Below, piece after piece: positions 1 to 43,984 of a DNA stretch of 43,984 bases. The stretch's first letter is position 1. Each line of letters opens with the position of its first letter. A model generated the notes under the pieces. It made no database searches and was not told where the DNA came from. It worked only from the letters and a program-made list of their open reading frames with translations. Made by a program: the position numbers and the translations under genes. Source of the DNA: Escherichia phage UAB_Phi78. The stretch lies in the sequence record GU595417. The stretch is one strand, 5' to 3'.

Positions 1-280
1 TAGGCGTGTGTCAGGTCTCTCGGCCTCGGCCTCGCCGGGATGTCCCCATAGGGTGCCTGTGGGCGCTAGGGCGGCCTGAGAAGGCCTGAGAGAGTCGCTT
101 AGTGTGGGCCAAAGGGAGACCGGAGGCCGACCGAGAGCGAGCGAGAGGGACACGCGGAGGACGCTTGACAGCGTGTGCGGGCGTGGGCTATCTGTTCCTT
201 TGCTCCTCACTTCGTTTGCTCCGCTTACGCTACGCTTCACTCACGGCCTTGTGTACCTTAGGGACTTCCTTATCGTGTAC
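1..280. repeat. GC-rich left genome terminus, candidate terminal-repeat region
   Basis: Sharp GC-rich block with internal short direct repeats (cggcctcggcctcgcc; ggcctgaga twice; gagcgagcgagag) and no RBS-supported ORF, unlike the AT-richer remainder. The right end of the window does not repeat this sequence, so the extent of any terminal repeat cannot be set from this window alone. Confidence 0.4.
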
Positions 281-288
281 CTTGGGAC

Positions 289-380
289 AGTCTTAGTAAA
301 TACCTTAGTCACTTCCTTAGTAGCTTCCTTAGTGAGTAGCTTAGTGGCTATCTATTGCTGTCTTAGTGTTACCTTAGTGA
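289..380. repeat. short periodic repeat array (CCTTAGT core, about 12-bp spacing)
   Basis: CTTAGT/CCTTAGT recurs at about 291, 303, 315, 327, 340, 362 and 373, mostly 12 bp apart, with further copies at about 551 and 564. T7-type genomes are known to carry short repeat arrays next to the terminal repeat. Confidence 0.6.
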
Positions 381-520
381 TTGCATAGCTACGCTATAAG
401 ATGCGAATAGGTCGCGGTCGGTAGACCGCTAAAGAAAGAGAAGAATAATAAGATGCAGTCGGAGGAACACCAGAACACAGGCCAACCTATCCTAGCCTTG
501 TATCTATTGCTTTTTCCTTG

Positions 521-536
521 GTCCAACACGTTAGAC
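521..536 (-). repeat. dispersed 16-bp near-palindromic element (GTCTAACGTGTTGGAC family), inverted copy
   Basis: gtccaacacgttagac is the exact reverse complement of the core found at 6253, 6424 and elsewhere. Confidence 0.7.
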
Positions 537-569
537 AACCTATCTTATTCTTAGTGAGGTAACTTAGTG

Positions 570-598
570 TTGACAAGGTAGGTTTAGTGTAATACTAT
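570..598 (+). promoter_or_regulatory. candidate host sigma70 early promoter
   Basis: TTGACA (570-575), 17-bp spacer, TACTAT (593-598), upstream of the first early ORF. Confidence 0.45.
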
Positions 599-726
599 GC
601 ATCACGTAGGCGGTGCTGAGGCACCTAGTAGCCAGCTAGTAAGGCATATGAAGTGACTAGTGTCTACATTGCTCTTTAATAATCTGGTTGTGTCTCGATA
701 GGTCAACTAACAAAAGGTGAACTGTC

Positions 727-36288: not shown

Positions 36289-36483
36289 ATGGTTGATTCC
36301 GAACTGGTTAGCGGCGGGATGAAGTTAGCGCCATCTGCCTTAGTCTCAGGTGGGTACTTCCTCGGCATCAGTTGGGACAATTGGGTACTGATTGCGACAT
36401 TCATTTATACTGTGTTGCAAATCGGCGATTGGTTCTACAGCAAATACTCGTTATGTAAGGAGAAGAAACGTGGCAAGTCATAA
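36289..36483 (+). CDS. putative holin (single transmembrane segment, 64 aa)
   Basis: ATG 36289 with TAGGAGGTAAG RBS; one transmembrane segment ISWDNWVLIATFIYTVLQIGDWFY and a basic C-terminus; same position as T7 gp17.5. Confidence 0.55.
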   Translation: MVDSELVSGGMKLAPSALVSGGYFLGISWDNWVLIATFIYTVLQIGDWFYSKYSLCKEKKRGKS

Positions 36484-36769
36484 CAAACACGCCGCTACGG
36501 AAGATGAGGTAGGTAAGCTACATAGTGCTATCACCAATCTTTTCAACAAGAAAGCTGCTGCAATCCTCGCTGCGGTAGAGGAAGACCCTGATGCAGCAAT
36601 TGCGCTGGTGTCAGGTAAGGACATGGGTGCCATGTGTAAGTGGGTGCTAGATAATGGCATTACGGCTACACCTGCTGCACAGCAGGAAGAGTCTGCACTG
36701 TCTAAGCGCCTTGCTAAGATCAAAGCAGCATCTCAAGGTAAAGTAATCCAATTTGCTAAGGAGGCTTAA
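36470..36769 (+). CDS. terminase small subunit (candidate)
   Basis: GTG 36470, 7 nt after AAGGAG; about 100 aa; lies immediately upstream of and coupled to the large terminase, as for T7 gp18. The track ORF begins upstream at 36392. Confidence 0.5.
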   Translation: MASHNKHAATEDEVGKLHSAITNLFNKKAAAILAAVEEDPDAAIALVSGKDMGAMCKWVLDNGITATPAAQQEESALSKRLAKIKAASQGKVIQFAKEA

Positions 36770-40313: not shown

Positions 40314-40334
40314 ATTTAGGTGACACTATAGAAG
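40314..40334 (+). promoter_or_regulatory. SP6-type phage promoter (consensus)
   Basis: Exact atttaggtgacactatagaag upstream of the tailspike genes. Confidence 0.9.
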
Positions 40335-42150: not shown

Positions 42151-43665
42151 ATGATACAAAGATTAGGTTCTTCCTTAGTGAAGATGCCAAATGGTCTTAC
42201 ATTGACACAGTGGTTGCAGCCTGCAAACATCATCAAGGTAGATGATGCACCGTACAATGGAGACCTTATTGCTGCATATAATGCTGTTCCAGTTACAGGT
42301 AATTATGCTTTGGTTCTTACCAACCACACTTACAATGCAGTTGGCTTGTTCGATGCAGGTCGTAACACGAAGCCTAACATCACCATCATTGGTGCTGGTA
42401 TGCCTCAACTTGCAGGAGACAGATCGTCATTTGTTGCAGGTTCGGGTACTATCATTAAGGGTGCAGTAAAGAACTCCGCCAAGGGTTTCCAGATTGCTAA
42501 CCTAGGTATTGATTGTGGTAACACAGTTAGTCGTACAGATTACCAACCTGCACGCTTCGAAGACCCACTACAGATATATGGGTGTGGCGCTAATGCTAAC
42601 ATCTTCATCGATAACGTGAAATGCCTTAGTGCAGTTTCTGTAGATGAACGACCGGGAACACACAGCATTCTGCTTGAGCAGACTGAAGGTGTCACCATCG
42701 GCTATGTAGAGTGCATTGGTGGCTTTCACGGCCTAACCATCAAGTGCCGTAACCTACGTGGTGGGATTGCACATTGCTATGGTCAGTATGGTGATGGCTT
42801 CATCATCAAGTCCGATGCTGGTGGTGCAGCGAGTCACATCTACATGGAGCGAATTCAGGTAGGACACCCAGATCAGTCTATGTGGCCTGATGTGCACTTG
42901 GGTGGTATCTACGATGCGCACGATGGTGTAACCATTGATAGTGTTAGCATTGGTGAGTTGCATGTTGTACGAGGAACTTGGGGTCTGATACCTGCTGATA
43001 ACGCCACTGGCAATATCACCAACTTCCATATTGGACATTATGAGTGCCACCTTACTTACGGCAACCACTACTCCCTTGTTATCAACAACAAGGTTGTAGG
43101 TTGGACTATGGGTACTCACAACATCACGACCTGCTCAGGTGGTATCAAGGTAGACCCTGCATCAGTGTATGTGAACATAGGTACTGGTCGCTCTACAAAC
43201 AACACTGAAAGTGGGTACTCTCTTGGTGGCAACACCTTGATTCATGGTGAACTGATTGCAGATGCGAATGGTAAGTATGGTGTAGAGTATTCTGGTGGTC
43301 TAGGTCTTGATGTAAGTAAGATTCATGGATTCCAGAATCCACTTGGTACTTACTCAGGGTACTCTTCTGCTATCCAATCCCTACTGTGGCCTGACGCTGG
43401 GTTTGAAGCTATGGTAACAGGTAGAACTGTGACTTTACGTGGTTCACTCACTAAAGGCTCTACTGCATGGTGCGGTCAGGTGCTTGATGCTGTTAAGCCT
43501 ACACGAGACATTCGTATCTACGCATGGGCTGTTGGCATTGGTGGTTCAATGGTTCCTGTGGAAGCATGGGTTCGTTCTGCTACTGGTGCTATAGATGTCG
43601 TAGGCAAGGATTCGGTTGGCGAAGGGCAGATTGTTAGCTTCACTGGCAGCTACATCTTCAAGTGA
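42151..43665 (+). CDS. second tailspike / receptor-binding protein
   Basis: 504 aa; AAAGGAGGTGA RBS; Gly/Asn/Thr-rich repeats suggesting a beta-helix; terminal position. Confidence 0.7.
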   Translation: MIQRLGSSLVKMPNGLTLTQWLQPANIIKVDDAPYNGDLIAAYNAVPVTGNYALVLTNHTYNAVGLFDAGRNTKPNITIIGAGMPQLAGDRSSFVAGSGTIIKGAVKNSAKGFQIANLGIDCGNTVSRTDYQPARFEDPLQIYGCGANANIFIDNVKCLSAVSVDERPGTHSILLEQTEGVTIGYVECIGGFHGLTIKCRNLRGGIAHCYGQYGDGFIIKSDAGGAASHIYMERIQVGHPDQSMWPDVHLGGIYDAHDGVTIDSVSIGELHVVRGTWGLIPADNATGNITNFHIGHYECHLTYGNHYSLVINNKVVGWTMGTHNITTCSGGIKVDPASVYVNIGTGRSTNNTESGYSLGGNTLIHGELIADANGKYGVEYSGGLGLDVSKIHGFQNPLGTYSGYSSAIQSLLWPDAGFEAMVTGRTVTLRGSLTKGSTAWCGQVLDAVKPTRDIRIYAWAVGIGGSMVPVEAWVRSATGAIDVVGKDSVGEGQIVSFTGSYIFK

Positions 43666-43672
43666 GGTATGT

Positions 43673-43816
43673 ATGCCCTTAGTGAAGTCTATCAAGGAGA
43701 AGGCTGTACTCCAGAACACAGAAGAGCTAATCAAGTCCGGTCGTGACCCTAAGCAGGCTTATGCCATTGCTAAGGATGTACAGCGACGTGCCTTGAAGAA
43801 GCCTTCTGCATCTTAG
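43673..43816 (+). CDS. hypothetical small basic protein (47 aa)
   Basis: In-frame ATG 43673 after GAGG; the track ORF starts upstream inside the tailspike gene. Confidence 0.4.
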   Translation: MPLVKSIKEKAVLQNTEELIKSGRDPKQAYAIAKDVQRRALKKPSAS

Positions 43817-43869
43817 TGTAACCAAAGGGCTGGCCTAGGTTGGCCCTTAGTGTAATCAAAGGAGATAAC

Positions 43870-43947
43870 ATGTATATTCCAATGGAAGCAGTAGTAGGTA
43901 TCGCTTGTTTGCTAGTAGGGTTTGTCATAGGTTTGATAGCACAATAA
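43870..43947 (+). CDS. small hydrophobic peptide (25 aa)
   Basis: AAAGGAGATAACATG; MYIPMEAVVGIACLLVGFVIGLIAQ; below the track cutoff. Confidence 0.3.
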   Translation: MYIPMEAVVGIACLLVGFVIGLIAQ

Positions 43948-43984
43948 TGGTGGTCACAAAGTAGCCAAAGTCAAAATTTTGATA

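Follow-up and report, generated by a model that had tools for sequence, protein, structure and literature searches.

The genome end of the SP6-like phage UAB_Phi78 as a probable concatemer-junction region on the T7/T3 plan

It has long been known that the terminal repeat of T7 has arrays of short repeats next to it, which the T7 literature of 1983-1990 termed SRL and SRR. The terminal repeat itself is 160 bp long in T7 and 231 bp long in T3. At the T7 concatemer junction lies a class II signal of T7 RNA polymerase, the 'CJ' pause site, with a strictly conserved ATCTGTT core preceded by A, C, or T (PMC11617373; 10.1101/2021.01.11.426313; 10.64898/2026.02.12.705533), and pausing of the polymerase at the junction, which is needed for maturation, is documented for this phage only (PMC3276506, citing Zhang and Studier 2004). 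Here we analyze the ends of a 43,984-nucleotide sequence from Escherichia phage UAB_Phi78 (record GU595417; the whole stretch is called the window). Positions 43955-43984 together with 1-600 are probably the concatemer junction of an SP6-like podovirus, where the genome matures, and are arranged on the T7/T3 plan; a heptamer array in this region may act as a protein-binding platform. The terminal repeat of UAB_Phi78 has already been published, and the overall finding is already known. The array is not mentioned in the UAB_Phi78 paper, and no explicit description of an SP6-group array was found in the literature searched, which did not cover the primary SP6 papers.

Judged from its sequence, the window appears to hold the SP6-group counterpart of the T7/T3 junction: every sequence feature that we looked for was found except nearby phage promoters. 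Shared with T7 and T3 are a short exact repeat starting with TCTC, an inverted repeat built of a C-run, ATA, and a G-run about 26-29 nt from the left end, and ATCTGTT precisely where the repeat ends on the right, the only sense-strand copy both in T7 and in the window. Just right of the repeat follows a one-way heptamer array (CCTAAAG in T7 and T3) with a 12-13-nt period, strong host promoters lie a few hundred bp beyond the array, and the small terminase is homologous (PF11123). The differences are the heptamer itself, which is C(C)TTAGT(G) in the window versus CCTAAAG in T7 and T3; the linker from pause site to array, 50 nt in the window versus ~13 nt in T7; a repeat that is far GC-richer than its genome; and a conserved hairpin block after the array. 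The initial annotation, made from the letters of the window alone, had likened this terminus to a T7-type terminal repeat with an adjacent array, and both the T7/T3 sequence comparison and the mapped UAB_Phi78 repeat support that likeness.

The genome is of the SP6-like (Zindervirus) class. Its best match over 25 kb is pSL2 (98% identity), and SP6 is 91% identical to the window; none of the phage records searched is identical to it. Over the first 700 bases the identities are 96.6% for pSL2 and 90.5% for SP6 (window 16-555 versus SP6 1-527, AY370673). As expected of a left end from the SP6-like genera Zindervirus and Vectrevirus, the CTTAGT array lies between GGGCTATCTGTT and the ATTGCATAGC...GGTCGCGGTCGG block, in orthologous sequence. 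The left ends of SP6 and UAB_Phi78 are orthologous to that of the window; compared with SP6, the window has an extra 16-nt duplication in the linker and substitutions within the repeat.

Terminal repeat and the signal at its right edge

We took as the mark of this architecture an exact direct repeat of ~150-250 bp at both virion ends. The window itself has a single copy (within 1-190, plus strand), and the evidence for a repeat at both ends comes from the mapped UAB_Phi78 repeat and from SP6 homology. By the published UAB_Phi78 mapping the repeat occupies 1-180; by the SP6/K1-5/T7 convention, in which it starts with TCTC and ends at the A of ATCTGTT, it occupies 16-190. The UAB_Phi78 repeat was originally mapped by Bal31 mapping and run-off sequencing (PMC4837284), and the published sequence (PMC4837284 Fig. 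S1) equals window 1-180 save two single-G indels, with 17 differences to pSL2 and 18 to SP6. The window is therefore UAB_Phi78 or a phage nearly identical to it, opened at the left end of that mapping. SP6 carries an exact 174-bp repeat whose homologue is window 16-190. The genomes of PP1 and SP6 start at TCTCTCGG, the SP6 left end corresponding to window 16; the K1-5 genome starts 4 nt inward of this point, and TCTC begins both T7 and T3. The 15 nt before the right-hand SP6 repeat (TAGGCGTGTGTCAGC, SP6 43581-43595) correspond to window 1-15.

Relative to the SP6 ends, the published UAB_Phi78 ends lie 15 nt leftward at the left and 10 nt leftward at the right. This 10-15-nt mismatch with the SP6/K1-5/T7/T3 convention could reflect a different cut in this phage, or one of the mappings may be off. 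Since the two end mappings differ, the window may sit up to 15 nt off the physical end; otherwise it is not permuted. The initial annotation had suggested comparison with the ends of related genomes, and by the SP6 and UAB_Phi78 mappings its terminus is right to within 15 nt. Its statement that only one repeat copy is present also holds: the end of the window does not duplicate the start, and the permuted relatives GRNsp51 and GRNsp03 join window position 43984 directly to position 1. The GC-rich zone that it placed over the first 280 bp is real at its start, with a GC content of 0.66-0.68 over 1-200, and falls to 0.60 over 151-250, 0.50 over 201-300, and ~0.40 beyond 300. From this profile, the zone ends near 250 rather than 280. 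The repeat itself is 174-180 bp long.

Conservation across the junction was read as column identity by window position in an alignment of ten phages. The two repeat boundaries are the most conserved non-coding DNA of the region. Identity is 85-97% from -30 to +58 at the left boundary, 50-77% in the repeat interior (about 60-160), and 86-98% over 160-199, the right boundary with ATCTGTT. Beyond the repeat it is 28-59% in the linker (200-249), 64-96% in the array (250-380), and 74-95% in a block with two small hairpins (380-480).

The conserved island at the left boundary (1-58, plus strand) includes the TCTCTCGGCC start at 16 and the inverted repeat CCCC-ATA-GGG (44-53). Its left half is a conserved 30-nt stretch at the window's far end (CACAAAGTAGCCAAAGTCAAAATTTTGATA; 43955-43984, plus strand; 93-97% column identity, 10 relatives), which stands directly left of the repeat in the concatemer. 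This stretch is contiguous with window position 1 in GRNsp51 and GRNsp03 and in the right ends of SP6 and K1-5. Counted from the SP6-type left end, the inverted repeat lies ~29 nt in; a similar motif is found in PP1. In T7 the counterpart is CCCCC-ATA-GGGGG (26-38), about as far from the left end. The element is common across subfamilies near the left cut site. In the variable interior (19-151, plus strand) we found the short direct repeats that had been noticed within the GC-rich start: CTCGGC in 2.7 copies (19-34), GGCCTGAGAA in 1.9 copies (73-91), and a 10-nt unit in 2.4 copies (128-151). The interior also holds one CTTAGTG (98-104), and over 1-190 self-match is strongest at a lag of 10 nt. 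At the right boundary, the conserved island comprises GACGCTTGACAGCGTGTGCGGGCGTGGGCTATCTGTTCCT (160-199, plus strand).

For the class II signal we looked for ATCTGTT that follows A, C, or T and lies on the transcribed strand at the right-hand repeat edge. The right edge reads GGGCTATCTGTT, a sequence that is exact at the corresponding loci of 13 relatives. It contains ATCTGTT (190-196), preceded by T, the predicted core of a pause and termination signal and the sole plus-strand copy in the window. A single plus-strand ATCTGTT is found at the same repeat boundary in SP6 (174), K1-5 (234), and T7 (161). T3 has it at the repeat boundary too (position 232; 800 nt of T3 examined), and gh-1 has ATCTGTC and ATCTGTA at the corresponding boundary. 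On the plus and minus strands, respectively, ATCTGTT occurs 1 and 6 times in the window, 1 and 4 times in T7, 1 and 2 times in K1-5, and once each in SP6. The minus-strand excess would fit avoidance of stray pause signals in genes and is non-significant for this genome alone (one-sided p = 0.06).

Some similar sequences were considered and set aside. ATCTATT at 350 and 502 was rejected as a class II core because it is inexact, and any base change abolishes function according to the papers cited above for the signal. These two sites belong to near-copies (TATCTATTGCT, at 349-359 and 501-511) of the boundary sequence TATCTGTTCCT, one base off the class II core; the near-copy at 349-359 stands in for one mid-array unit. 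The conserved TTGACA at 165-170 was rejected as part of a sigma-70 promoter, given that no acceptable -10 follows it and the promoter scan did not report it.

Heptamer array and its distribution

Between the pause site and the array lies a pyrimidine-rich variable linker of 50 nt (197-246, plus strand), the length of which varies among relatives. A 16-nt duplication at 195-222 (TTCCTTTGCTCC TCAC TTCGTTTGCTCC; repeat family D16) is shared by pSL2 and, in part, by K1-5, and is absent from SP6, BP12B, and Kenya-K30.

As an array of the T7/T3 kind we counted a one-way series of at least four heptamer units with an 11-13-nt period, starting no more than ~100 nt right of the repeat. Tandem repeat search, self-match, and inspection by eye identified ~12 units of C(C)TTAGT(G) with a 12-nt period, all in one direction, at 247-383 (plus strand). 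Tandem Repeats Finder reports period 12 and 4.5 copies over 292-345, and the self-match z-scores are 5.3 at lag 12 and 5.4 at lag 24. By eye, the units start at 247, 256, 268, 280, 291, 303, 315, 327, 339, (351), 361, and 372. Those at 247, 256, 268, and 280 are degenerate CCTT units, those at 291-339, 361, and 372 are CTTAGT(G) units, and the unit at 351 is replaced by TCTATTGCTGTC. The initial annotation had recognized the 12-bp periodicity of CCTTAGT and placed the array at 289-380; the periodic array stands, and the degenerate units extend it by ~40 nt leftward.

The array is far from what the rest of the genome would lead one to expect, with 7 CTTAGT in 247-380 versus 0.04 expected (P ~2e-14). 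Comparison of ten phages that span Zindervirus, Vectrevirus, Ulipvirus, and Axomammavirus gives 94% identity for the core CTTAG[TG] columns versus 69% for the spacers (Mann-Whitney p = 1e-11), a contrast that is partly inflated by the aligner, which tends to match up repeated words. Units and spacings in SP6 are exactly those of the window, and across the same four genera the array has 4-11 units; spacings in 12 relatives are mostly 11-13 nt.

The heptamer is also clustered around the junction at a larger scale. The genome has 16 CTTAGTG on its plus strand versus 3 on the minus strand, and 14 of the 16 plus-strand copies fall within 3.5 kb around the junction (P = 4e-14). Three irregularly spaced copies (43678, 43812, and 43846; feature 43678-43852, plus strand) occupy the left flank, in the last 310 nt (P ~1e-6 versus background). 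In K1-5 the left-flank copies are CTTAGT, CTTAGG, and CTTAGTG at 43926-43959, and three CTTAGTG lie inside the repeat, versus one in the window. Both the repeat interior and the left flank contain copies, and, as in T7, these are less numerous and less evenly spaced than those of the right flank. Selection on the tailspike-gene copies (41645, 42174, and 42625) was rejected: common descent accounts for the presence of two of them in SP6, and K1-5, where an unrelated endosialidase gene takes the tailspike position, has no CTTAGTG there. A hairpin (AAGGGCTGGCC TAGG TTGGCCCTT) in 43800-43860, flanked by CTTAGTG, lies between the last small genes. In K1-5, TTAGG occupies the loop of a comparable hairpin, and the element may serve in RNA processing or termination.

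Further copies adjoin the first host-type promoter, as the initial annotation had pointed out. This sigma-70-type promoter has 10 of 12 matches: TTGACA at 570-575, a 17-nt spacer, and TACTAT at 593-598. Two CTTAGTG (550-556 and 563-569) precede it, the second directly abutting the TTGACA, and the spacer contains TTTAGTG (584-590); the feature spans 550-598 on the plus strand (P ~1e-5 for 2 in 60 nt). The CTTAGTG|TTGACA junction is also present in SP6, K1-5, Kenya-K30, SE29, and mutPK1A2.

In T7, the CCTAAAG array is at 174-340 with a period of ~13, and three copies lie inside the repeat; further copies left of the right-hand repeat (39671 and 39700) are irregular, like the left-flank CTTAGTG of the window. 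The T3 array is at 244-295, right of the repeat, and again three copies lie inside the repeat. Minor variants of the two heptamers are one base apart, CCTTAGG in the window and CCTAAGG in T7. The window array would work like the T7 array but, as its heptamer is not CCTAAAG, belongs to another repeat sequence family. T3 and T7 share the heptamer; the window differs in its heptamer and has a small terminase only marginally similar to T7 gp18. The gp18 proteins of T3 and T7 are 93% identical and interchangeable (PMC3276506).

Packaging gene, promoters and neighbouring elements

The genes that go with a T7-type junction were found: a PF11123 small terminase, a single-subunit RNA polymerase (annotated in pSL2), and promoters of the phage's own. 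The small terminase subunit gene (36470-36769, plus strand) matches Pfam PF11123 DNA_Packaging_2, the family of T7 gp18, with E = 2e-15. Identity to T7 gp18 is only 30% over 53 aa. Its product is a candidate reader of the junction signals.

Nine SP6-consensus promoters occur in the window. The last upstream of the junction, at 40314-40334 (plus strand), is an exact match to the SP6 promoter consensus and is the likely source of the phage-polymerase transcription that would reach the pause site in concatemers. There are no SP6-type promoters between it and the junction, and none within 2.3 kb right of the junction, where the closest match, at 2310, is weak and confined to the core. A phiOL-like phage promoter was searched for at the left end and not found.

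Right of the array follows a conserved non-coding block (381-480, plus strand) that is present in 99 phage records. Its two small hairpin-forming inverted repeats are ATAGC-N3-GCTAT (385-397) and GCGGTC-GGTA-GACCGC (414-429), and compensatory changes preserve the hairpin pairing in K1-5 and PP1. The DNA fold z-score of the block is -2.2. Rfam over 1-1300 returned just two sub-threshold chance matches, and none for this block.

The initial annotation saw no coding potential in the terminus. Consistent with this, the open reading frames (ORFs) overlapping 1-600 have only GTG or TTG starts (e.g., 104-388, 94 aa), and the frames are broken in relatives. The records of Koku, SE29, PST_H2, and CrRp3 carry automatic 'hypothetical protein' genes across the repeat and array, which are very likely spurious. 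A 23-nt inverted repeat (87% complementary; 686-708 and 1031-1053) brackets the first ORF (727-1014, 95 aa), with a direct repeat, GCTCTTTAAYAAT, beside each arm (~671 and ~1056). The inverted repeat could form a long-range RNA duplex (e.g., an RNase III site) or represent the ends of an inserted cassette; the SP6 genes differ there.

Possible roles of the junction and its array

By analogy with T7, the phage RNA polymerase would read rightward across the shared repeat of a concatemer, probably from the promoter at 40314, and pause around 202-204, a few nucleotides beyond ATCTGTT. Once paused, the complex may recruit the small and large terminase subunits with the prohead. A cut at the right edge of the repeat would then give the mature right end, the repeat being duplicated so that both daughter ends carry a copy. 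Homology and position show the repeat, its boundaries, and the pause site to be the predicted maturation site used on concatemers. The initial annotation extended a role in concatemer processing to the arrays; such a role is documented in T7 for the repeat and pause site (PMC3276506) and undocumented for the arrays.

For the array, our best inference, and the least certain part of the scheme, is a platform with several sites, all oriented alike, to which a protein specific to the phage group would bind; the small terminase is the leading candidate. Recognition by such a putative protein is suggested by the conserved cores, the uniform orientation, the clustering on both flanks, and the heptamer that differs between groups. 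Such a platform would aid in building or placing the maturation complex, or give notice of the coming terminal cut during packaging of the left end, the last part to be packaged. A more specific proposal, to be taken as tentative, is that CTTAGT and CCTAAAG arrays are oriented sites for a co-evolving phage-encoded junction protein, most plausibly the small terminase. Short repeats are known to nucleate protein-DNA complexes at the R sites of lambda cosB, the pac boxes of SPP1, and the 11-bp repeats of plasmid R1 parC. The window array may be likened to these in having short, similarly oriented repeats, at roughly helical-turn spacing, beside a processing site. It differs from them in lacking any sequence relationship and in its period (12 nt versus 10.5-11), and binding in the window is putative.

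Several observations weigh against parts of this scheme, besides the aligner's effect on the core/spacer contrast. The published UAB_Phi78 repeat stops 9 nt short of ATCTGTT, rather than at ATCTGTT. No phiOL/phiOR-type phage promoter is found near the junction, unlike T7, which we treat as a difference from T7 and not as disqualifying for the architecture. No computation made here showed protein binding to the heptamers. The literature searched yielded no demonstrated function for the T7 arrays, and we know of none. The correlation between heptamer and small terminase draws on two groups alone. Unit number ranges from 4 to 12, so the exact size of the array is not critical. Finally, the copies abutting the early promoter suggest a role related to transcription or DNA entry instead.

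The last point leads to an alternative that we judge unlikely: the heptamers may serve the infecting end, as sites for a factor that regulates the first early host promoter or handles the leading few hundred bp at DNA entry. Such a factor might be an early shut-off protein or an internal virion protein that is ejected. The array is on the end homologous to that which T7 injects first. CTTAGTG abuts the -35 of the first promoter, with a near-copy in the spacer, and does so in several genera; in T7, CTTAAAG overlaps the A1 -35 and spacer, and copies occur near phiOL. However, the repeat itself and the other flank hold copies as well, a symmetry about the junction that fits a concatemer-level role better, and Koku and K44PH129C1 retain the array without the promoter-abutting copies. 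No candidate protein is known for such a factor. The copies on both flanks of the junction are not explained if the array belongs to a left-end replication origin, as a set of iterons or another structural DNA element. This possibility, which we consider improbable, has in its favor a secondary origin near the left end of T7 and a loosely origin-like setting, with one-way repeats next to the hairpin block (381-430) and a purine-rich, AT-rich stretch (430-452). But T7-type origins need a phage promoter, none of which occurs within 2.3 kb, and there is no initiator gene next to the array.

If replication slippage in a non-coding leader had produced a functionless satellite, this would account for the variation of unit number and spacers among relatives, and the neighboring 16-nt duplication shows that slippage occurs here. 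Chance expansion nevertheless fits poorly with a CTTAGT core that is near-invariant while spacers drift, with the uniform orientation, with an array position kept across genera, and with the analogous array of another heptamer in T7 and T3, and we give this explanation little credence. Least probable is that the repeats encode a tetrapeptide-repeat protein (ORF 104-388, ...LVTSLVASLVSSLVA...). In its favor, 12 nt is divisible by three, the array lies within an open frame with a GTG start, and some pipelines annotate hypothetical proteins there in relatives. The coding reading was rejected for lack of a conserved frame: K1-5, K1E, and CrRp3 have spacings of 10, 11, and 13 nt that destroy it, and the upstream 16-nt indel does so too. 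In addition, the ORF would start within the terminal repeat, upstream of every promoter-like site in the scan, and no ribosome-binding site was seen.

The chief value of identifying this region as a probable maturation junction is correct annotation. The window holds one collapsed copy of the repeat, real virion DNA is ~175-180 bp longer, and the ORFs that related records show across 1-600 can almost certainly be dismissed as spurious. A modest comparative addition is the combination of a pause signal unique on the sense strand, conserved cores with drifting spacers, and a heptamer that differs between groups, which provides a testable handle on the role of the array. If the arrays are indeed sites for a co-evolving junction protein, this would give a function to those beside the T7 terminal repeat, and the copy abutting the first early promoter would link binding of a packaging protein to occlusion of that promoter late in infection.

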